A stretch of DNA of 64,000 bases from the NCBI GenBank assembly GCA_951406725.2, contig OX597821.1, positions 27,652,001-27,716,000 of the forward strand. Reading direction: 5' to 3'. The notes beneath the pieces were generated by a model. It saw nothing but the letters and a program-made list of their open reading frames with translations, was not told the origin of the DNA and did no database searches. This stretch comes from Octopus vulgaris. Its lineage: Eukaryota. Positions 1,426 through 53,944 of this stretch are shown piece after piece. Made by a program: the position numbers and the translations under genes. The first letter of the stretch is position 1. Every line of letters starts with the position of its first letter.

Positions 1426-2580
1426 ATATATATATAAATCATAAGTGCAAGCGGATACATGTGCCCGTATACATTTAGATCAATACTCATTGGAATTTAT
1501 GATTTTCACATGCACACAGATACCACACACACACACACAGATGCTGCATATATATAAATAAGTGTTTGCATATATATGTGTTTGTCTATGTGTGCGTGCT
1601 TGCTCTTGCCTGTGCACGAGTATTTATATAAACATTGCGAATTTTTACATTGGTTCATTGTATCAAATACCTTTTCTCAAACATTTGTTACACGAAATTT
1701 ATCGCACTTGACACTTGTCGAGGACATTCAAGTAATGAAGAAGGCATCACATGCGAACATGCTGCTTTTTATCTTACTGGTAAGTAATCGTATAATTATT
1801 CATTTACATGAAATTTCAATGTCACACAGGAAAATACTCAACGCTATTAAAATTCACATTTTTATGCTTTTGTCATTTATTTATTGTTTCATCTTGAATA
1901 GCTGTTATTTTGGCTGTAGTAGATAAATTAGCATATTCGAATTACTTGTTGATATTTGGGATTACCGTATTGAACTGTTTTGTCCCCATAATGTACATTA
2001 TGTTGAGGCATTCAGCAGCACATTTTGGCAGCACTTACAATAGCTTATTCATTTCCTATTTGTTATTAAAGAAAAATTCTGCTAGATATCTTCCAGCAAT
2101 AAAAAACTATTGACTTCTATCTCATGGAATTTGCTTCTTGTGAATCTCCATATTTCCTTTTTAGAACCTTTTTGGATTTCATTTTTTGTTTTTCATTTTT
2201 ACGAAGAGTCCTTTTTTGCTCTTTTCTTTATTTTCTCTTTCCAAGTCTGCGCAGTTACGTAAGAAGTGCCACAGGAATTTCTATTTATACTATCTGTGAT
2301 GCATGGAATATTAATTTAGAAAAAAGATAAGCCTTTCCAGTGTGAGATGGTTTGATACAAAAACGATATTACATTTCGTATCAACATTTTATCGCACAGG
2401 TGTTTATAAGTCTGTAACCGATTTTGTTTAACTGCTGTCGGGAAATGTCATCTGTTCTGATAGCAACTACTTAATTTTTTGCCAAGGTATTGCAGGTTAT
2501 AATTACATGCTGCATTTATAATTTACTAAAATAAAATAAACTCTTATTTATCCTTTAACACACACGGATACACACATTTT

Positions 2581-2778
2581 TATACGATGGACTGCTGCAA
2601 TGTTCCTGGCCTTAAGAGTATCACGAATGACATGGTTGACGGCTCAGCCTCTGATGTTCTTTTAGAGAGCTTAGGAAAAGAGGAGAACCACTACGGTGTG
2701 TGAAGCTAGAAGGGGAGTGTGTTGCATAACATCATAATTAAGAGATTCTCCTATATTTTCTTGGCCACACCTCGTATA
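2581..2778 (+). mobile_element. Short mariner/Tc1 deletion derivative
   Basis: Ends TATACGA... and ...CCTCGTATA are TIR-like and TA-flanked. The internal CGGTGTGTGAAGCTAGAAGGGGAGTGTGTTGCATAA translates as RCVKLEGECVA*, like mariner transposase C-termini. Confidence 0.45.
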
Positions 2779-3149
2779 TTATATATATGACGTTTATGTA
2801 AAAAAAAAAAGAAAGCAGTGAGGCAAGAGGAGTTCGCATAACTTCGTAAATGTCACTAATATTTCATAATGAACTCAAATTAAATCATCAGCTTCGTTGC
2901 TTTTTAATTATATTTGTGACATGACAGGTGTCTCCTTGATGAGCTTCTTTACAGTAGTATATTCCGTTTACGTCTTTGAATCTAATTTGTGTTTGTATGT
3001 GTATGTATTAATATATATATATTTAGCCAGCTGGGTGGCATCACTTGAAGGCTAAAACAATGCAAAGTGAATTGTGACCAGCGATGTGTAGCAACATCTG
3101 ATAGCCTCGTCGGTCACCGTGACTACGGTTATAGATATATATATATATA

Positions 3150-6100
3150 TTATATAAAAGGGCTTAGTAAAATAAATTACTTTGCCGCATACTGAACTCA
3201 TTAGAAATAGCAGCTAAAAAACTTTTTTAAAGCTATTTCTAATACTTAAAGAAAATCTCTCTCATATTGTGTTTGCTTAACTCAACTCACGAAAGTTTGG
3301 GGGTAAGGACATCAAAAAATCAAATGCAAAGGTTATTTGAGAACGTACGTTTCAAGATTAGTCAACACGACACTTCTATCATCAGCTCAGAAACTCCTTG
3401 GTTTGGATTTGAAAACACTGAAAGTAAGAGCATACCCTTTCGGCTTCTCATCGCTTTCGAAGATCTGCTCGTAACTAACAGTGCCAACAAACTCAAATAT
3501 GCAAGCGAAGAATTTCTGTTATCCCCTTTCCACCAGCGTGGGTTAAAATCAGCAAACACTATGCTTATTTCGGTAAAATCCGAAGCATTAATTAGAGGGA
3601 GATTAATTATAATTTCAACAATTGAGGGTAAAATTAATTAATTATTAATCAATTTCACCAAGTGTTCAGTATGCAAAGGGACCATTTAAGGCGAATTCAA
3701 ATTATTACATTATATAAAAGGGCTTAGTAAAATAAATTACTTTGCCGCATACTGAACTCATTAGAAATAGCAGCTAAAAAACTTTTTTAAAGCTATTTCT
3801 AATACTTAAAGAAAATCTCTCTCATATTGTGTTTGCTTAACTCAACTCACGAAAGTTTGGGGGTAAGGACATCAAAAAATCAAATGCAAAGGTTATTTGA
3901 GAACGTACGTTTCAAGATTAGTCAACACGACACTTCTATCATCAGCTCAGAAACTCCTTGGTTTGGATTTGAAAACACTGAAAGTAAGAGCATACCCTTT
4001 CGGCTTCTCATCGCTTTCGAAGATCTGCTCGTAACTAACAGTGCCAACAAACTCAAATATGCAAGCGAAGAATTTCTGTTCTCCCCTTTCCACCAGCGTG
4101 GGTTAAAATCAGCAAACACTATGCTTATTTCGGTAAAATCCGAAGCATTAATTAGAGGGAGATTAATTATAATTTCAACAATTGAGGGTAAAATTAAATT
4201 AATTATTAATCAATTTCACCAAGTGTTCAGTATGCAAAGGGACCATTTAAGGCGAATTCAAATTATTACATTATATAAAAGGGCTTAGTAAAATAAATTA
4301 CTTTGCCGCATACTGAACTCATTAGAAATAGCAGCTAAAAAACTTTTTTAAAGCTATTTCTAATACTTAAAGAAAATCTCTCTCATATAGTGTTTACTTA
4401 ACTCAACTCACGAAAGTTTGGGGGTAAGAACATCAAAAAATCAAATGCAAAGGTTATTTGAGAACGTACGTTTCAAGATTAGTCAACACGACACTTCTAT
4501 CATCAGCTCAGAAACTCCTTGGTTTGGATTTGAAAACACTGAAAGTAAGAGCATACCCTTTCGGCTTCTCATCGCTTTCGAAGATCTGCTCGTAACTAAC
4601 AGTGCCAACAAACTCAAATATGCAAGCGAAGAATTTCTGTTCTCCCCTTTCCACCAGCGTGGGTTAAAATCAGCAAACACTATGCTTATTTCGGTAAAAT
4701 CCGAAGCATTAATTAGAGGGAGATTAATTATAATTTCAACAATTGAGGGTAAAATTAATTAATTATTAATCAATTTCACCAAGTGTTCAGTATGCAAAGG
4801 GACCATTTAAGGCGAATTCAAATTATTACATTATATAAAAGGGCTTAGTAAAATAAATTACTTTGCCGCATACTGAACTCATTAGAAATAGCAGCTAAAA
4901 AACTTTTTTAAAGCTATTTCTAATACTTAAAGAAAATCTCTCTCATATAGTGTTTGCTTAACTCAACTCACGAAAGTTTGGGGGTAAGGACATCAAAAAA
5001 TCAAATGCAAAGGATATTTGAGAACGTACGTTTCAAGATTAGTCAGCACGACACTTCTATCATCAGCTCAGAAACTCCTTGGTTTGGATTTGAAAACACT
5101 GAAAGTAAGAGCATACCCTTTCGGCTTCTCATCGCTTTCGAAGATCTGCTCGTAACTAACAGTGCCAACAAACTCAAATATGCAAGCGAAGAATTTCTGT
5201 TCTCCCCTTTCCACCAGCGTGGGTTAAAATCAGCAAACACTATGCTTATTTCGGTAAAATCCGAAGCATTAATTAGAGGGAGATTAATTATAATTTCAAC
5301 AATTGAGGGTAAAATTAATTAATTATTAATCAATTTCACCAAGTGTTCAGTATGCAAAGGGACCATTTAAGGCGAATTCAAATTATTACATTATATAAAA
5401 GGGCTTAGTAAAATAAATTACTTTGCCGCATACTGAACTCATTAGAAATAGCAGCTAAAAAACTTTTTTAAAGCTATTTCTAATACTTAAAGAAAATCTC
5501 TCTCATATAGTGTTTGCTTAACTCAACTCACGAAAGTTTGGGGGTAAGGACATCAAAAAATCAAATGCAAAGGTTATTTGAGAACGTACGTTTCAAGATT
5601 AGTCAACACGACACTTCTATCATCAGCTCAGAAACTCCTTGGTTTGGATTTGAAAACACTGAAAGTAAGAGCATACCCTTTCGGCTTCTCATCGCTTTCG
5701 AAGATCTGCTCGTAACTAACAGTGCCAACAAACTCAAATATGCAAGCGAAGAATTTCTGTTCTCCCCTTTCCACCAGCGTGGGTTAAAATCAGCAAACAC
5801 TATGCTTATTTCGGTAAAATCCGAAGCATTAATTAGAAGGAGATTAATTATAATTTCAACAATTGAGGGTAAAATTAATTAATTATTAATCAATTTCACC
5901 AAGTGTTCAGTATGCAAAGGGACCATTTAAGGCGAATTCAAATTATTACATTATATAAAAGGGCTTAGTAAAATAAATTACTTTGCCGCATACTGAACTC
6001 ATTAGAAATAGCAGCTAAAAAACTTTTTTAAAGCTATTTCTAATACTTAAAGAAAATCTCTCTCATATAGTGTTTGCTTAACTCAACTCACGAAAGTTTG

Positions 6101-7201
6101 GGGTAAGGACATCAAAAAATCAAATGCAAAGGTTATTTGAGAACGTACGTTTCAAGATTAGTCAACACGACACTTCTATCATCAGCTCAGAAACTCCTTG
6201 GTTTGGATTTGAAAACACTGAAAGTAAGAGCATACCCTTTCGGCTTCTCATCGCTTTCGAAGATCTGCTCGTAACTAACAGTGCCAACAAACTCAAATAT
6301 GCAAGCGAAGAATTTCTGTTCTCCCCTTTCCACCAGCGTGGGTTAAAATCAGCAAACACTATGCTTATTTCGGTAAAATCCGAAGCATTAATTAGAGGGA
6401 GATTAATTATAATTTCAACAATTGAGGGTAAAATTAATTAATTATTAATCAATTTCACCAAGTGTTCAGTATGCAAAGGGACCATTTAAGGCGAATTCAA
6501 ATTATTACATTATATAAAAGGGCTTAGTAAAATAAATTACTTTGCCGCATACTGAACTCATTAGAAATAGCAGCTAAAAAACTTTTTTAAAGCTATTTCT
6601 AATACTTAAAGAAAATCTCTCTCATATAGTGTTTGCTTAACTCAACTCACGAAAGTTTGGGGGTAAGGACATCAAAAAATCAAATGCAAAGGTTATTTGA
6701 GAACGTACGTTTCAAGATTAGTCAACACGACACTTCTATCATCAGCTCAGAAACTCCTTGGTTTGGATTTGAAAACACTGAAAGTAAGAGCATACCCTTT
6801 CGGCTTCTCATCGCTTTCGAAGATCTGCTCGTAACTAACAGTACCAACAAACTCAAATATGCAAGCGAAGAATTTCTGTTCTTCCCTTTCCACCAGCGTG
6901 GGTTAAAATCAGCAAACACTATGCTTATTTCGGTAAAATCCGAAGCATTAATTAGAGGGAGATTAATTATAATTTCAACAATTGAGCATTAATTAGAGGG
7001 AGATTAATTATAATTTCAACAATTGAGGGTAAAATTAATTAATTATTAATCAATTTAACAAAGTGTTCAGTATGCAAAGGGACCATTTAAGGCGAATTCC
7101 AATTATTACATTATATAAAAGGGCTTAGTAAAATAAATTACTTTGCCGCATACTGAACTCATTAGAAATAGCAGCTAAAAAACTTTTTTAAAGCTATTTC
7201 T
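3150..7201 (-). repeat. Tandem array of a ~560-bp HHR-bearing unit (7 full units + partial); retrozyme-like
   Basis: The unit marker TATATAAAAGGGC recurs at 3151, 3711, 4272, 4832, 5392, 5952, 6511 and 7112 (periods 560/561/560/560/560/559/601; the last unit has a 41-bp internal duplication). Units differ by only a few substitutions, and each has an HHR on the minus strand. Confidence 0.9.
3336..3392 (-). ncRNA. Minimal type I hammerhead ribozyme (repeated at ~3896, 4457, 5017, 5577, 6136, 6696)
   Basis: Minus strand: TTCTGAG-CTGATGA-T.AGA.AGT.GTC(GTGTT)GAC.TAA.TCT.T-GAAA-CGTACG-TT-CTCAAA. Stem I TGAG/CTCA, palindromic stem III (ACGTACGT), GUU triplet, U.U at the base of stem II. Confidence 0.7.
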
Positions 7202-7386
7202 AGCTGCTATTTCTAATGAGTTTTTTAGCTGCTATTTCTAATGAGTTCAGTATGCGGCAAAGTAATTTATTTTACTGAGCCCTTTTATATAACGTAATAA
7301 TTTGAATTCGCCTTAAATGGTCCCTTTGCATACTGAACACTTGGTGAAATTGATTAATAATTAATTAATTTTACCCTCAATTGTTG

Positions 7387-7394
<8 letters not shown>
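7202..7394 (+). repeat. Inverted partial copy of the 560-bp unit, ending in (TA)n
   Basis: Reverse complement of the unit junction (GTTCAGTATGCGGCAAAGTAATTTATTTTAC ... TTACCCTCAATTGTTGAAATTATA). TAGCTGCTATTTCTAATGAGTT is duplicated at the inversion point. Confidence 0.85.
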
Positions 7395-26314: not shown

Positions 26315-27517
26315 TATATTAGGTATATAAAATTGAGTGAAATTTAATAGTATTCTAGAATGTCTAATGGAATTAAAATTTTATATTTATGCATTTGTGT
26401 ACATTTAAAGTAATTAAATATTATTTTATAGAATAAGCGAATTAAAATTTCTTCGATTAAAACCCTTTCTATCATGGAAGTATCCAAAGAGCATTTGAGG
26501 CACTACATGCTTTATGAGTACAAAAAAAAAGAAGACTGTGCAGCCGAAGCGACTTGAAACAAACACTCAGTTTATGGGAAAGAAGGCTTGAATGAAAGCA
26601 CTTGCAGAAGATGGTTTGCAAAATGCAGAAGTGCAGATTTCAGCCTTGAAGATGAAGTTCGAAGAGGACGTCCAGTTGAGTTTGATGATAAGCTCCATAA
26701 GGCATTACTTGAAGAAAATCCTGCATTATCAGCTGCAGAATTGGCAATAAAGCTTAGTTCAAACCATACAACTGTTTATCGTCATCTTCAAAAACCTGGA
26801 AAGGTTCGTAAACTTGGAAAATGTGTGCCTCAATAATTGTCCGAAGGCAAACGCAAATTCCTTGTTGACAGGTGCTCTTTTCTCCATTCTCGCGAACTCA
26901 TTTCACCCTTTTTAGATAGACTTGTGACTGTTGACGAAAAATGGGAAAAATCCCAACAACAAGTGAAAAGGGAACTTCATGGTAAAAAAGGTTCTTCTCT
27001 CTTTCTGGTAGGTTTGCAAAGGAATAATTCACTTTTAATTGTTACCACCTAATACAACAATCAATGCTCACGTCTACTGTCAGCAATTAGAGCGTTTGAA
27101 CCAAGCTTTGAAGAAAAAAGACCTGCTATAGTGAATCGAAGAAGGCTAATGTTTTATCAGGACAATGCGCGACCCCACACTGCAACGATCACATCACAGA
27201 AGATCGAAGAGCTTGGTTGGGACAATTTTTCTCATCCACCTTATTTTCTCGACGATGCACCTTCAAACTACCATTTGTTTCGTAATTTACAGAATCATTT
27301 CGCATGTCAGCAAGAGGTCGAAACTGACATTTCAGAGTTCTTCGCTTTGAAACCAAGACTAACATTCATGGGATTAAAAAGCTTGTAAATAGATGGGAGG
27401 AATTCATAGATAATCAGGGAAAGTATATTGATGATTAAATTTCAATTAAATATAACCTTTTATCACTTGTTTTCTTTATTCAAAATTGGGACAGGACTTA
27501 TGGGATAACCTGATATA
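26315..27517 (+). mobile_element. Decayed mariner transposon (DD34D-type transposase pseudogene)
   Basis: MEVSKEHLRHYMLYEY start (~26474), RRWF..FSLEDEVRRGRP, CVPQ*L (WVPHEL), TVDEKW, QDNARPH, HPPYFLDDAPSNYHLF. Right TIR ...CTTATGGGATAACCTGATATA; left TIR only partial (TATTAGGT). Confidence 0.92.
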
Positions 27518-36043: not shown

Positions 36044-36049
<6 letters not shown>

Positions 36050-36262
36050 CAAGATAAGCAACAATAATATCTCGGTAATTTGGTACGATCGTTTCACGCT
36101 ACATGATTTTATTAAGCATTCTAAGTATTACAGGAGTTCTAAAATGATGAGTGCTCAACATTTTAAAACTGCTGTAACATTTACAATGTTTAATAAAATG
36201 ATGTAGCGTGAAACGATCGTACCAAATTCCCGAAGATATTCTTGTTGCTTATTTTGATTATA
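36044..36262. repeat. ~220-bp fold-back palindrome adjacent to (TA)n
   Basis: Arms include the perfect AATTTGGTACGATCGTTTCACGCTACAT / ATGTAGCGTGAAACGATCGTACCAAATT and the outer TATAATCAA.ATAAGCAACAA / TTGTTGCTTAT.TTGATTATA. Confidence 0.85.
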
Positions 36263-45921: not shown

Positions 45922-46001
45922 ATACACTCATACTGAGAGAGAAGAGTGCATTGTTAGTATATTATATATATATATATGAATATATATATATGTATATATA
46001 T

Positions 46002-46492
46002 ATTTATTATATAGAAGGAGCTTCTACAGGACTAGTACTGTTTCATTCAAGAGAAATCTTCAGGAAGCTATTTAACAAGAATTGTATTAGCATTTATACA
46101 TTTAGGCAGGTTTAAAGGAGTGGTGGTGGGGGACTTTTTGGGGGGTAGGCATAGCGCAAAATATCATACTTGGGGGAGTGGTCAAGGAGTCAGTGGTAAG
46201 TTAGATGAAAGAATAGATAAATAAAAAAATAAAAAAATAATAAAAAATATAAAAAATAAAAAATAAAAAATAAAAAATAAAAAAATAAAATAAAATAAAA
46301 TAAAAAAATATAAAATATAAAAAATATATATAAAAAAATATATATATAAAATATATATATACAAAAATATATATATAAAAAAAAGGGGGGATAGAGTTAT
46401 AGGTAAATAAGGAGATTCTCACTTATACCTATACACACATGTATACGTATCTACACACACATACATACATACACATATATATACACACACAT

Positions 46493-46545
<53 letters not shown>

Positions 46546-46922
46546 CCTACACATACACACATACATACATACAAATATACATATACATATATATATATAC
46601 AATCCAATACAGGCCCATTCCCTAATTTTAATTTTATTATCTTCATTTATTACTTTTGTTATCTTTGATCGCTAGGGCTAAGAATCCTGGCAATGGCTGC
46701 AGTCCATTTGTCTGTCTACTAGAAGGCAAGTACTCATTCCCGCACGCACACTCATTAGCACGTACATTCACCCATTCGTACACTCATACACATACACGTA
46801 CGCACGCGTTATATTCATACATACAAACATCTACATACGTTCACGTATATACACATACGTACTCGTACCTACAGATTCATGTCTACACTTTAGGAGGCTA
46901 GACTATACATATACACCAATAA

Positions 46923-46959
<37 letters not shown>

Positions 46960-47013
46960 CGCATATACATACACACACACACATATATACTCCTACATAC
47001 AGATACATACCTA

Positions 47014-47047
<34 letters not shown>

Positions 47048-47051
47048 CATG

Positions 47052-47089
<38 letters not shown>

Positions 47090-47271
47090 CATACACATAC
47101 ACACATACATATACACACACATACATACACATATATATACATACACAAACATATATACACACATATATATATATACATACACACATACACACATACATAC
47201 GTATACATACATACATACATCCATACATCCATACTTACATGCATTTATACGCATACACACACCCATCTATA

Positions 47272-47314
<43 letters not shown>

Positions 47315-47593
47315 TCACACATACATATACAAATCTACGCACACACATACATACATACACGTATACGCATACACGCACATACACATATACATGCGTACCC
47401 ATACACGTGCACACACGCACGCGCATCCATATATATACACACACACACATATATATACACACGTGTGCAAGCATACATACATACTCATACGCGCACACAT
47501 ACTTACAAATACATATATGCACACACTTACACACATATATATACATACACATATACATGCATACATACATATATGCATACATACACACACGCA

Positions 47594-47633
<40 letters not shown>

Positions 47634-47712
47634 TACATATATATACATATATATATACATACATAGATACACATACGCATACATACACATACACATACAT
47701 ACACACATATAT

Positions 47713-47757
<45 letters not shown>

Positions 47758-47958
47758 TACATATATACACACATACATACATATACATACACACACACAT
47801 ACATATATACATATACACTGATACACATACCCATACATACACATGCATATACTTATATCACTACATACTCACATATATAAACATATATACATATACACAC
47901 ATACATATGTACATGTACATACACATACGTATGCATATATATACATATACATATATAT

Positions 47959-47989
<31 letters not shown>

Positions 47990-48268
47990 CTACACACACA
48001 CACACACACACATACACACATATACATGTATACATACGCAAAAATGATACACATATATACACATACACACACACAGACAGATGCATATACATACATATAT
48101 ATATATAAACTACATATCTATATAAATACATACATAATACACATATACACACACATATATATACATTCATGCATATACATATACAAGTATACACATACAT
48201 ACACACACACGCGCACACATACATATACACACACACATATATACAAATACATACATACATACACACAT

Positions 48269-48317
<49 letters not shown>

Positions 48318-48690
48318 TACACGTACACATATACATATGTATATATATATCAACAAGGGAGGGTAAGGTTAATTAGTTATTAAACAATTTCATCAAGTGT
48401 TCAGTATGTAAAGGGACCATTATTATTTTGAGTAAACAATGTTAGAGGGAAAAAAATTCTCTAAGTAGTGGAAGAGGCTAAAAAACTTTATTGGCTGCTA
48501 TTTCTAGAAAGTTTAGTATGTGGCAAAGTAATTTATTTTATATTCCTAATCCCTAATTATATAATATTTTATACATACATACACATACATAAGCACATAC
48601 ATTTACACATACATATGCATATACATATATACACATATACATACAAACACATATACACATATACACACACACACACATACAAGCACATAC

Positions 48691-48742
<52 letters not shown>

Positions 48743-49420
48743 GCAAATATATATACATATATATTTTTTTACATGCATACATACACACACACACACATAA
48801 TACATGCGTATATTCCTACTGTACCCATGCATTTCTATACAAATATACATACATACATACGATACACATATACAAGCGTGCACATATAATATGTGAAAGG
48901 TCTTAGGAGAAAAGGTAATCGGGGGTGCTAGGGGAACAGTGGGGTTGGGGGGGGGTTGTAGGGGGGTTGTCATCAATCAGGTTGCCGGGTAGGTCTATAG
49001 TTCTTGTAGTTCGCATACTTCTTATGCATACAATTTGGGGAGTGTTCTGAAAATTTGTTAAGGAGAGGGCCTTTGGCGAACAAGATCTCTAGGCTCTCTG
49101 ATATGCATAGGTCACAGCAGGTATGTCCTCCTGTGTACGAGCGCGCCTTCTGTAGTAGTTTCCACTTGGTCTTGAAGGGGATTGAGTTCCTTTTAAGGTA
49201 CCAGATGTGGGCGGCGAGGGTAGTTTGGTTGGATTTATCCTGGCTAGGTTGGGCGTGGTAGAGTAGGAGAGTCTAATAGTGTTCTTATTTAGGATAGTGT
49301 AGTACTTATGTTGGGTGGGGAAGTGTTTCTGTAGGAGAGTGAAAAAGATCTTAGCTACAGGTGTAGCGACCTCACGGTTGAAGGGGGAGTTGTACCTCAC
49401 GGTTGAAGGGGGAGTTGTAC
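46002..49420 (-). mobile_element. Left arm: inverted, 5'-truncated Penelope-like (Naiad-type) element with a ~250-bp internal deletion
   Basis: Reverse complement of 49419-53019, but lacking ~49546-49794 (joined through CAGGA microhomology at ~49238-49242). Extends slightly further 5' (YNSPFNREVAT). Confidence 0.9.
46019..46069 (-). ncRNA. Type I hammerhead ribozyme (left-arm copy)
   Basis: Exact reverse complement of 52952-53002. Confidence 0.8.
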
Positions 49421-50063
49421 ACCTGTAGCTAAGATCTTTTTCACTCTCCTACAGAAACACTTCCCCACACAACATAAGTACTACACTATCCTAAATAAGA
49501 ACACTATTAGACTCTCCTACTCTACCACGCCCAACCTAGCCAGGAACCTAGCCAACAACAATGTGAAAAAACTTAACATATCTACTTTCTCCGGGGCCCA
49601 CCCAACGTCCGATAGCAATTGCAACTGCCATGATAAAACCACCTGCCCCCTCAACAACAACTGCCTACAGAGGGACCTAGTATATAAATGCGAGGTAAGA
49701 TCAGGCCTTGACGATAAAAGTAAATCCTACATTGGAATGACGTCAAACAGCTTTAAGACCCGCTGGTATGCACATACACACTCGTTCCGGCGACAGGATA
49801 AATCCAACCAAACTACCCTCGCCGCCCACATCTGGTACCTTAAAAGGAACTCAATCCCCTTCAAGACCAAGTGGAAACTACTACAGAAGGCGCGCTCGTA
49901 CACAGGAGGACATACCTGCTGTGACCTATGCATATCAGAGAGCCTAGAGATCTTGTTTGCCAAAGGCCCTCTCCTTAACAAATTTTCAGAACACTCCCCA
50001 AATTGTATGCATAAGAAGTATGCGAACTACAAGAACTATAGACCTACCCGGCAACCTGATTGA
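49419..50063 (+). CDS. C-terminal part of a PLE polyprotein: RT-thumb/linker + Cys motif + GIY-YIG endonuclease (5'-truncated, frame uninterrupted)
   Basis: TPVAKIFFTLLQKHFPTQHKYYTILNKNTIRLSYS..CNCHDKTTCPLNNNCL..LVYKC..SYIGMTSNSFKTRWYAHTHSF..TTLAAHIWYLK..CDLCISE..LLNK..CMH. This shows VY/YIG, R, H, E and N GIY-YIG residues plus the CxC-x5-C-x5-C and CxxC motifs typical of Naiad-clade PLEs. Confidence 0.88.
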   Translation, partial: TPVAKIFFTLLQKHFPTQHKYYTILNKNTIRLSYSTTPNLARNLANNNVKKLNISTFSGAHPTSDSNCNCHDKTTCPLNNNCLQRDLVYKCEVRSGLDDKSKSYIGMTSNSFKTRWYAHTHSFRRQDKSNQTTLAAHIWYLKRNSIPFKTKWKLLQKARSYTGGHTCCDLCISESLEILFAKGPLLNKFSEHSPNCMHKKYANYKNYRPTRQPD

Positions 50064-50304
50064 TGACAACCCCCCCCTACAACCCCCCTACAACCCCCCC
50101 AACCCCACTGTTCCCCTAGCACCCCCGATTACCTTTTCTCCTAAGACCTTTCACATATTATATGTGCACGCTTGTATATGTGTATCGTATGTATGTATGT
50201 ATATTTGTATAGAAATGCATGGGTACAGTAGGAATATACGCATGTATTATGTGTGTGTGTGTGTATGTATGCATGTAAAAAAATATATATGTATATATAT
50301 TTGC

Positions 50305-50356
<52 letters not shown>

Positions 50357-50484
50357 GTATGTGCTTGTATGTGTGTGTGTGTGTATATGTGTATATGTGT
50401 TTGTATGTATATGTGTATATATGTATATGCATATGTATGTGTAAATGTATGTGCTTATGTATGTGTATGTATGTATAAAATATT

Positions 50485-50700
50485 ATATAATTAGGGATTA
50501 GGAATATAAAATAAATTACTTTGCCACATACTAAACTTTCTAGAAATAGCAGCCAATAAAGTTTTTTAGCCTCTTCCACTACTTAGAGAATTTTTTTCCC
50601 TCTAACATTGTTTACTCAAAATAATAATGGTCCCTTTACATACTGAACACTTGATGAAATTGTTTAATAACTAATTAACCTTACCCTCCCTTGTTGATAT
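50485..50700. repeat. Module homologous to the 560-bp array unit, embedded in the PLE 3' region (mirror copy 48349-48570)
   Basis: AAAATAAATTACTTTGCC.CATACT.AACT...TAGAAATAGCAGC matches the unit start. ATGGTCCCTTT.CATACTGAACACTTG.TGAAATTG.TTAATAA.TAATTAA..TTACCCTC matches the inverted unit end (cf. 7317-7386). Confidence 0.8.
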
Positions 50701-50729
50701 ATATATACATATGTATATGTGTACGTGTA

Positions 50730-50778
<49 letters not shown>

Positions 50779-51034
50779 ATGTGTGTATGTATGTATGTAT
50801 TTGTATATATGTGTGTGTGTATATGTATGTGTGCGCGTGTGTGTGTATGTATGTGTATACTTGTATATGTATATGCATGAATGTATATATATGTGTGTGT
50901 ATATGTGTATTATGTATGTATTTATATAGATATGTAGTTTATATATATATATGTATGTATATGCATCTGTCTGTGTGTGTGTATGTGTATATATGTGTAT
51001 CATTTTTGCGTATGTATACATGTATATGTGTGTA

Positions 51035-51087
<53 letters not shown>

Positions 51088-51288
51088 ATATATATGTATA
51101 TGTATATATATGCATACGTATGTGTATGTACATGTACATATGTATGTGTGTATATGTATATATGTTTATATATGTGAGTATGTAGTGATATAAGTATATG
51201 CATGTGTATGTATGGGTATGTGTATCAGTGTATATGTATATATGTATGTGTGTGTGTATGTATATGTATGTATGTGTGTATATATGTA

Positions 51289-51333
<45 letters not shown>

Positions 51334-51412
51334 ATATATGTGTGTATGTATGTGTATGTGTATGTATGCGTATGTGTATCTATGTATGTATATATATATG
51401 TATATATATGTA

Positions 51413-51443
<31 letters not shown>

Positions 51444-51725
51444 GAGTGCGTGTGTGTATGTATGCATATATGTATGTATGCATGTATATGTGTATGTATA
51501 TATATGTGTGTAAGTGTGTGCATATATGTATTTGTAAGTATGTGTGCGCGTATGAGTATGTATGTATGCTTGCACACGTGTGTATATATATGTGTGTGTG
51601 TGTATATATATGGATGCGCGTGCGTGTGTGCACGTGTATGGGTACGCATGTATATGTGTATGTGCGTGTATGCATATACGTGTATGTATGTATGTGTGTG
51701 CGTGGATTTGTATATGTATGTGTGA

Positions 51726-51764
<39 letters not shown>

Positions 51765-51956
51765 TATATATAGATGGGTGTGTGTATGCGTATAAATGCA
51801 TGTAAGTATGGATGTATGGATGTATGTATGTATGTATACGTATGTATGTGTGTATGTGTGTATGTATATATATATATGTGTGTATATATGTTTGTGTATG
51901 TATATATATGTGTATGTATGTGTGTGTATATGTATGTGTGTATGTGTATGTATGTG

Positions 51957-52013
<57 letters not shown>

Positions 52014-52951
52014 GTATATATATGTATAGGTATGTATCTGTATGTAGGAGTATATATGTGTGTGTGTGTATGTATATGCGGGTATATACATATATATATA
52101 TATGTATATTTATTGGTGTATATGTATAGTCTAGCCTCCTAAAGTGTAGACATGAATCTGTAGGTACGAGTACGTATGTGTATATACGTGAACGTATGTA
52201 GATGTTTGTATGTATGAATATAACGCGTGCGTACGTGTATGTGTATGAGTGTACGAATGGGTGAATGTACGTGCTAATGAGTGTGCGTGCGGGAATGAGT
52301 ACTTGCCTTCTAGTAGACAGACAAATGGACTGCAGCCATTGCCAGGATTCTTAGCCCTAGCGATCAAAGATAACAAAAGTAATAAATGAAGATAATAAAA
52401 TTAAAATTAGGGAATGGGCCTGTATTGGATTGTATATATATATATGTATATGTATATTTGTATGTATGTATGTGTGCATGTGTAGGTATGTATATGTATG
52501 TATATATATGTATATATGTATATGTGTGTGTATATATATGTGTATGTATGTATGTGTGTGTAGATACGTATACATGTGTGTATAGGTATAAGTGAGAATC
52601 TCCTTATTTACCTATAACTCTATCCCCCCTTTTTTTATATATATATTTTTGTATATATATATTTTATATATATATTTTTTTATATATATTTTTTATATTT
52701 TATATTTTTTTATTTTATTTTATTTTATTTTTTATTTTTTATTTTTTATTTTTTATTTTTTATATTTTTTTATTATTTTTTTATTTTTTTATTTTTTTAT
52801 TTATCTATTCTTTCATCTAACTTACCACTGACTCCTTGACCACTCCCCCAAGTATGATATTTTGCGCTATGCCTACCCCCCAAAAAGTCCCCCACCACCA
52901 CTCCTTTAAACCTGCCTAAATGTATAAATGCTAATACAATTCTTGTTAAAT

Positions 52952-53002
52952 AGCTTCCTGAAGATTTCTCTTGAATGAAACAGTACTAGTCCTGTAGAAG
53001 CT
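52952..53002 (+). ncRNA. Type I hammerhead ribozyme (right-arm copy)
   Basis: AGCTTC-CTGAAGA-TTTCTCTTGAAT-GAAA-CAGTACTAGTCCTG-TA-GAAGCT; predicted cleavage after A52996. Confidence 0.8.
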
Positions 53003-53944
53003 CCTTCTATATAATAAATTAATTTTACTCTGCCATGTATTGAGTACCTTACTTACTGTGGTTAACCCCGAATCAACCCGGGACCTACATATGTATATAT
53101 ATATGTATATATATATGTATGTATATATATATCTATATCTATCTATCCCTCTCTCTCTATATATATATGACTATTTTTTCCAGTCAGTTATTCACCATTA
53201 CACATGTTTCATTCCGTAAGAGGAATCTCGAAATTGTCCATATTGGATAGATGTGAAAAAAATTCCTATAAGAAAATAGTTTGGCAGAGAATCATATATG
53301 TTATTTCTACAGATTTTCTATAGAATTTAGAAACAGTAAAAAAGTTATGACATTACGTATACGAACACATCTATGTAAACAGCGTGAAGCATCTTAACTT
53401 TCAGTGTTGGCTCTAACTCCTATAGGAAATTAGAAGAGATAACACAGAGTTAATTAAATCCATTGTTAACTCGAAACTTAGGATACTGTATTGAGTTATA
53501 ATCTTTTAATGTTCTTGCGAGTATACTATGATTCAAGAACAAAATACGTTATCTTTATCAGCATATACGAATATGGGTGTGTGTGCGCGCGCGTGTGTAT
53601 GGAATGTTCAGGTACGTGCGCTCTCACCACTGAGAACACAGACTTAGTTGTCCTCAGACACCAATGGATTATCTATCATCAAATTCATATACATTAACAG
53701 TGCCTGGACTACCTACTTGTCGAGGCATCAAGCGAAAAATAAATGGCACACGTAAAGATGGACTTTTGTCTCTGAAATTTTCGCACCAATATTCAATGAA
53801 AAAAATATTGAACACTCTCCGGTTTTTGTTTGCTTACTTTGTTTTTATGCATCAACGTATTCTTCTGTTTGTATATCTCTCTGTATACCAATCTGCCTAT
53901 ACGGTACGTGCCTCCCTACCTGCCTGCCTGCCTACCTACTAACA

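Follow-up and report, generated by a model that had tools for sequence, protein, structure and literature searches.

The window analysed here, a stretch of 64,000 nucleotides of Octopus vulgaris DNA (C8:27,652,001-27,716,000; the assembly comprises 227 contigs and 2.8 Gb), carries an asymmetric palindrome of unequal arms at positions 46002-53092, in which each arm is a 5'-truncated copy of the same Penelope-like element (PLE). We propose, as the probable origin of this structure, that two young copies of a Hydra-clade family entered a (TA)n microsatellite in one head-to-head insertion, both nicked target strands priming on one template and the two cDNAs being joined to each other. Taken alone, the locus is a dead, ordinary and recent insertion, and the shape of such insertions is already known. 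Its value lies in the counted rule of one tailed and one tail-less end, the single-template signal carried by the arms, and small tandem arrays identical to their parent element.

The palindrome and the element that forms it

By comparing the window with itself, 49794-53019 was found to match 49242-46002 of the opposite strand with 97.7% identity over 3,263 aligned bases. Within the blocks free of microsatellites, the arms differ by 2 substitutions in 1,369 aligned bases; the remaining differences in a global alignment are microsatellite lengths, few substitutions and one large gap. Specifically, 253 bp of the right arm (49541-49793), bounded by 5-nt direct microhomologies, are missing from the left arm, a loss which takes out the CxCx5C linker and the GIY-YIG core and breaks the frame. 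At the opposite extremity, the right arm runs 73 bp beyond 53019, to about 53092, into the element's own tail, while the left arm has none. An earlier examination of the letters alone (hereafter, the sequence-only reading) had described 46002-49363 and 49419-53019 as reverse complements on either side of a centre at 49363-49420, differing mainly in microsatellite length and a few single-nucleotide changes. The reverse complementarity and the minor differences stand, but the 253-bp gap and the tail had been missed, and the centre is element sequence, with neither spacer nor target DNA between the arms. In this centre the left arm starts at unit position 1581 and the right arm at 1611, so that the left arm reaches 30 nt further 5'; the innermost 25 nt of the left arm are duplicated (49370-49394 and 49395-49419), and the arms overlap by 3 nt. 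The outer flanks are unique, not mirrored, and unrelated to each other past the (TA)n runs (best local match of 70 bases, score 60).

The right arm retains an open reading frame (ORF) remnant of 214 codons at 49419-50063 (+), with GIY-YIG, CxCx5C and CxxC motifs, of which GIY-YIG, CxC and CxxC had been read from the sequence. When the assembly was searched with this peptide, a step proposed earlier for the recovery of full-length copies, at least 150 matches with 95-100% identity were obtained, and an intact ORF of 713 amino acids was recovered at two loci, on C18 (L021) and C4 (L022/L023). The window peptide is identical to residues 500-713 of this protein (214/214), in which the reverse transcriptase (RT) precedes the endonuclease (EN), with YRDD at 347 and YIG at 603. 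The full unit measures 5,387 bp, with the ATG at 115, the stop codon at 2256 and a hammerhead at 5321. Both the GIY-YIG and the RT domain are assigned by motifs; homologues of the 713-residue protein are labelled as Pfam GIY-YIG (PF01541) in precomputed annotation. Pfam scans, run on the peptide of the window, on the complete protein and on 14 aligned members, returned no relevant family, and a PDB sequence search yielded no match of relevance (best E 0.028).

In tandem copies the 3' end of one unit passes directly into the 5' end of the next, and this continuity identifies 53020-53092 as a 73-bp element tail. Exact matches across the genome amount to at least 2,263 tailed ends, at least 1,309 tail-less ends and 81 junctions of a tail into a 5' untranslated region (UTR), of which 60 lie within three arrays. 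The family displays traits of EN-containing (EN+) PLEs, namely pseudo-long terminal repeats (pLTRs), partial tandems, an inverted 5'-truncated copy, a tail, and RT and GIY-YIG in a single ORF, which bears out the Penelope-like identity proposed earlier. It is young and large: the window copy shows 3-6 differences in 636 bases from its nearest relatives, and the two intact ORFs, together with the 95-100% identical copies, suggest that the family is probably still competent, in line with the possible activity envisaged by the sequence-only reading. The L021 copy was considered as the direct source of the window copy and ruled out, the two differing at 6 of 636 bases. Contigs of public runs guessed to be RNA cover the ORF, and they are not used here as evidence of expression.

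The number of intact ORFs is probably underestimated in this assembly. A C run at unit positions 1582-1588 is read as 6-C in 112 copies, against 27 copies in frame (exact matches in the assembly). A programmed or inherited frameshift between RT and EN was rejected in favour of a likely homopolymer error, since the C run is in frame in four of four public runs, which list no deletion there at 5% or above, and since 6-C and 7-C copies are interleaved on a tree of 43 sequences.

As to the clade, Hydra elements are described as having a C-terminal EN, RWK and DKT motifs, CxCx5C, CxxC and CxH, no CCHH, a hammerhead and (TA)n targets (PMC8557442; here and below, statements on published work refer to the accessible parts of the sources). 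The 713-residue protein has a C-terminal EN, RIRWR (RWR for RWK) and DKT motifs, the CxCx5C linker, CxxC and CxH flanking the catalytic E and N residues, and no CCHH, and the insertions are in (TA)n. Among 13 aligned homologues, picked from the best 120 of 1,082 matches, RWK occurs in 11, RWR in one and neither in one, and nearly all agree with the Hydra list. Compared by eye, the protein runs motif by motif parallel to Hydra-1_Obim, Hydra-2_Amil and Hydra-1_Ajap. With the clade (Hydra-1_Obim, Hydra-1_Ajap, Penelope-13_HM) the element shares a single ORF of ~700 residues, RWK-like and DKT motifs, CxCx5C, CxxC and CxH by the catalytic residues, the lack of CCHH, a canonical 3' hammerhead and (TA)n targets, and Penelope-13_HM is listed with a 5'-truncated inverted copy, as found here (PMC8557442). 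It differs in the length of its unit, Hydra elements being generally under 3 kb, a general and not a defining trait; the excess is due to the ~3-kb microsatellite 3' UTR, which also holds a nested retrozyme-end fragment. Further differences are the tail (73 nt versus the 30-40 nt described in PMC8557442), RWR in place of RWK and the thousands of young ends. By its predicted protein, the element fits a new family within the known Hydra clade, separate from Hydra-1_Obim because hammerhead and protein differ by eye.

The sequence-only reading had instead assigned the element to the Naiad type, crediting Naiads with a cysteine-rich C-terminal EN. Naiads do target (TA)n, make inverted copies with tails and carry cysteine motifs, all in common with this family, but their EN is N-terminal and contains CCHH, and they are described with DKA, IFD and no canonical hammerhead (PMC8557442). 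The RT-then-EN order in two intact full-length copies, the absence of CCHH, the presence of a hammerhead and DKT in place of DKA refute this membership, to which we assign a negligible probability. Neptune, Nematis and Poseidon were also considered and discarded, as the 713-residue protein has neither CCHH in the EN nor the DKG motif. Repeat annotation of octopus reports recently active Penelope-like families, with no clade given in the accessible part (PMC13282606).

A pattern scan of the window detected one 49-nt type I hammerhead motif, identical at 52953 (+), 46068 (-) and 337 (+). The motif folds into three stems with an energy no better than that of shuffled sequences, and a z-score near 0 is what a minimal motif should give; an Rfam search gave no hammerhead family at E <= 0.1, only low-complexity miRNA matches. 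The same ribozyme had been placed 17 bp from both outer termini; the identical motif is indeed present in both arms, but it lies 18 nt from the terminus and only on the left. A canonical hammerhead motif is present near the 3' end, as in the Hydra clade, and its cleavage is predicted.

One tailed and one tail-less end, and a probable common template

The asymmetry of the window palindrome recurs across the genome. On C1, up to 104.8 Mb and within 16 kb, a divergent tailed partner was found for 38 of the 63 exact tail-less ends (21 of the 38 within 182 bp), and none of the 63 faces another tail-less end. Over the same portion of C1, one tailed-tailed pair was found among 100 tailed ends, with a tail-less end between the two, and the convergent-orientation control gave no pairs. 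If each end were chosen independently, such pairing would have a P of about 7e-11 at best. Starting from the tailed side, 40 tailed ends (40 of the first 42 listed on C1) comprise 31 with an inverted tail-less partner, none with a tailed one and 9 without any found within 9.9 kb. Similarly, 33 of 36 longer pairs join a tailed to a tail-less end, while two continue into tandem and one is tailed-tailed. We conclude that head-to-head insertion is the normal product of this family. The tail end is joined to TA in contigs of four of four public runs, and the tail-less end in one.

Which arm is longer varies: the tail-less arm exceeds the tailed one by kilobases at L025, L027 and L238, and the tailed arm is the longer at L024, L030 and L239. 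Because the longer arm may be either one and the tail-less arm has no counterpart of the tail, simple copying of one arm from the other does not account for those cases. At the short extreme, 246 mini-palindromes found by exact match genome-wide turn without any spacer at a self-complementary 4-mer, which lies at the hammerhead's 5' stem. These ~210-bp units (e.g. L041, L048 and L066) look like miniature inverted-repeat transposable elements and could be misannotated as such. At L039/L040 (C3:32115200-32122400), a head-to-head insertion is part of a larger convergent duplication, which is either a later rearrangement or an assembly effect.

Inverted 5'-truncated pLTR copies with a one-sided tail have been published for EN+ PLEs (PMC3846280; Fig. 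2 of PMC8557442), and they resemble the copies described here in their head-to-head arrangement, the tail at one end and palindromic junctions. In those descriptions the tail is optional, whereas in this family the pairing of a tailed with a tail-less end has been counted and holds almost without exception. A count of tail pairing was not found in the accessible PLE literature and may be in print, for example in the supplements of bioRxiv 10.64898/2026.07.22.740005 or PMC11167929.

The arms also share variants. The two arms in the window carry the same alleles at 50505, 50663 and 52153, which were seen in none of 30-34 other copies, and a 35-mer spanning two rare alleles, 50497 and 50505, occurs genome-wide only in these two arms. 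This near identity, with variants private to the locus, agrees with the single recent integration assumed by the sequence-only reading. Among the 36 longer pairs, 17 have in common one or more alleles that are private among the copies compared. Furthermore, among 15 junctions with both arms in the ORF, the arms of 6 end within about 31 nt of each other, a coincidence with a chance of about 3% each. Adenosine-to-inosine editing was considered for the divergent arm of L226 and rejected, the differences being indel noise near the hairpin centre.

Proposed priming of both strands and competing explanations

In the mechanism that we favour, the GIY-YIG domain would nick both strands of the (TA)n target; copying would begin 18 nt past the hammerhead on one strand and another 73 nt downstream on the other, with a single uncleaved, read-through or circular RNA as template for both. 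We infer that this template must run through the hammerhead, because its predicted cleavage site is upstream of both ends. At the window locus, the tail-less cDNA would have skipped 253 nt and stuttered over 25 nt, after which the 3' ends of the two cDNAs would have annealed by 3 nt and been repaired. Two RNA-primed cDNAs joined by microhomology fit the family best, given that either arm may be the longer and that only one tail is present, and the zero-spacer junctions would suit an end-to-end annealing of two cDNAs better than a snap-back. A related activity has been described in vitro for the PLE protein of the anole (Poseidon from Anolis, PAc), which is predicted to dimerise, cuts and extends both strands of AT-rich DNA, and starts at two internal sites delimiting the tail on an uncleaved RNA template (PMC11167929). 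PAc belongs to a different clade, its bulk assay showed no strand difference in start site, and pairing within one insertion is not covered in the accessible part of that work.

The main rival is a fold-back, in which a single target-primed cDNA, begun at the tail, comes to a halt, folds onto itself and is copied up to an AT-rich tail-less site, or, in a variant proposed for rotifer Penelope (PMC3846280), self-primes on an antisense transcript. This fits the window locus nearly as well: the centre is close to symmetric, the arms share private alleles, the deletion is only in the tail-less arm, and a fold-back would itself force one tailed and one tail-less end. On the other hand, the tail-less arm extends further 5' than the tailed arm here, and by kilobases in the three loci named above, and zero-loop junctions such as those of the 246 mini-palindromes and of L011 would be poor primers for snapping back; on balance we regard a fold-back as unlikely, though deserving to be kept in view. 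Two RNA molecules, or two insertions into one microsatellite later homogenised by gene conversion, could be invoked for the 8 of 36 pairs whose arms differ at common alleles, which fit two templates, and the family both targets (TA)n and has a (TA)n-rich 3' UTR of its own. Gene conversion between the arms of palindromes is known. The strict divergent orientation and tail pairing, the lack of target DNA between the arms, and the presence of the same locus-specific deleted units in both arms of three arrays (see below) make such an origin improbable. Least credible of the three, in our view, is a fold-back read or an assembly artefact. The assembly has errors of the long-read type, such as the C run, from which one base is missing in 112 copies but not in the 27 in-frame ones or in public contigs, its hairpin centres are noisy, and the centre junction lacks confirmation in contigs of four public runs. 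Against an artefact, the flanks are unique and unmirrored, a tail and a clean microhomology deletion distinguish the arms, dozens of loci, 200-bp ones among them, repeat the two-ended layout, and both types of end are found in independent contigs.

Several observations count against joint priming on one template or loosen its support. Besides the 8 pairs just mentioned, an offset of at least 136 nt separates the arms at 9 of the 15 ORF junctions, and the shared alleles could instead have come from arm-to-arm gene conversion or from polishing of the assembly. Of the tail-less ends on C1, 25 of 63 are without an exact-match partner; the pairing sets overlap, and being a pair was the reason for which many loci were selected. 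Contigs of four public runs, possibly from other individuals, showed neither the junctions of the window palindrome (centre and deletion) nor its 25-bp duplication, and, given the homopolymer errors and noisy hairpin centres of the assembly, the fine detail of the junctions, the duplication especially, may be wrong. Finally, the Hydra placement follows from motifs, domain order and comparison by eye.

A bolder extension of joint priming, which we put forward tentatively and rate somewhat below an even chance, is that an asymmetric complex of two enzymes primes the two (TA)n strands from two fixed starts on one RNA. Every complete insertion would then be a one-tailed palindrome and, if the template were a small deleted hammerhead circle, a head-to-head array would be written in one step. 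How PLEs produce tandem and inverted insertions is still treated as open in the accessible parts of PMC8557442 and PMC11167929. Young ends by the thousand and two intact ORFs are available in this family, and so is a rule that can be counted and put to a cell-free or cell assay, namely a single tail in each palindrome and arms that derive from one source. The family also shows that abundance and a long unit are possible within the Hydra clade, with a near-identical parent and retrozyme-like offspring at hand.

Retrozyme-like arrays and other features of the window

Three head-to-head arrays of deleted units were identified, with units of 277 bp (L168, C2:64628300-64632200), 333 bp (L169, C5:37481400-37489300) and 271 bp (L170, C8:91475100-91483400). 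Each unit has a hammerhead and a tail, most units are about 99-100% identical to the parent, and in each array the same deletion junction is present in both arms, with one tailed and one tail-less end. In the search for tail-into-5'-UTR patterns each array was found at one locus, and the 333-bp junction is also a loose end in public run X20. These arrays are candidate newborn retrozymes; if the one-step writing proposed above were true, the three would represent the very birth of retrozymes from a parent that is active. That retrozymes originate from PLEs has already been proposed (bioRxiv 10.64898/2026.07.22.740005; PMC7229834). Like the arrays of this family, non-LTR retrozymes are tandem hammerhead units of 170-560 bp, thought to derive from and depend on PLEs (same sources); unlike them, the palindrome at 46002-53092 is the remnant of a coding element.

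Two further hammerhead-bearing insertions lie in the window. Positions 1-400 belong to another head-to-head insertion of this Hydra family (L032, ~9 kb), of which they form the tail-less end; this insertion starts before the window and lies 46 kb from the palindrome. The 560-bp tandem array at 3146-7394 belongs to a separate family, one 33-mer of which has 1,916 exact matches; it has 7 hammerhead motifs on the minus strand, a short inverted arm, and one short and one ~107-nt tailed end in (TA)n. Its homology with the Hydra element is restricted to the fragment nested in the 3' UTR of the latter, while the layout of the ends and the AT-rich start motif are similar. The nested fragment suggests that the 3' UTR grew by insertions into its own microsatellites. 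An autonomous partner of the 560-bp family was not found. The sequence-only reading had suggested the palindrome's family as a possible source of RT and EN for the hammerhead elements of the window; the end at 1-400 is a member of that family itself, and cross-mobilisation of the separate 560-bp family would be hypothetical. The features of the palindrome are collected in Table 1.

Table 1. Features of the palindrome and its target flanks (window positions)
Feature	Position	Strand	Remarks
Left (TA)n target flank	45960..46001		target-site duplication not discernible
Left arm	46002..49420	-	tail-less copy truncated at the 5' end (unit positions 1581-5387); 253 bp deleted internally, reading frame interrupted
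Hammerhead motif, left arm	46020..46068	-	identical to that of the right arm; pattern scan
Left-arm deletion junction	49238..49247	-	253 bp lost, 5-nt microhomology
Tandem duplication, 25 bp	49370..49419	-	innermost sequence of left arm, then 3-nt microhomology join to right arm; assembly sequence only
Right arm	49418..53092	+	5'-truncated copy, unit positions 1611-5387, plus 73-bp tail
ORF remnant	49419..50063	+	residues 500-713 of the 713-residue protein (thumb/linker end, CxCx5C, GIY-YIG, CxxC, CxH); no RT core
3' UTR	50064..52952	+	microsatellite-rich, ~2.9 kb; mirror at 46069-48975
Nested fragment	50470..50705		old; ends of the 560-bp array family, within 3' UTR; mirror 48342-48577; 78-89% identity
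Hammerhead motif, right arm	52953..53001	+	minimal type I; arranged like the Hydra hammerheads of PMC8557442 (File S2)
Tail, 73 bp	53020..53092	+	first 73 nt of next unit in tandem copies; right end only
Right (TA)n target flank	53093..53160

Elsewhere in the window, an open frame of 111 amino acids at 27053-27385 (+) resembles by eye a fragment of a mariner-type transposase, for which it is a candidate. Another self-inverted repeat of ~220 bp, with 88% identity, is present at 36044-36262.

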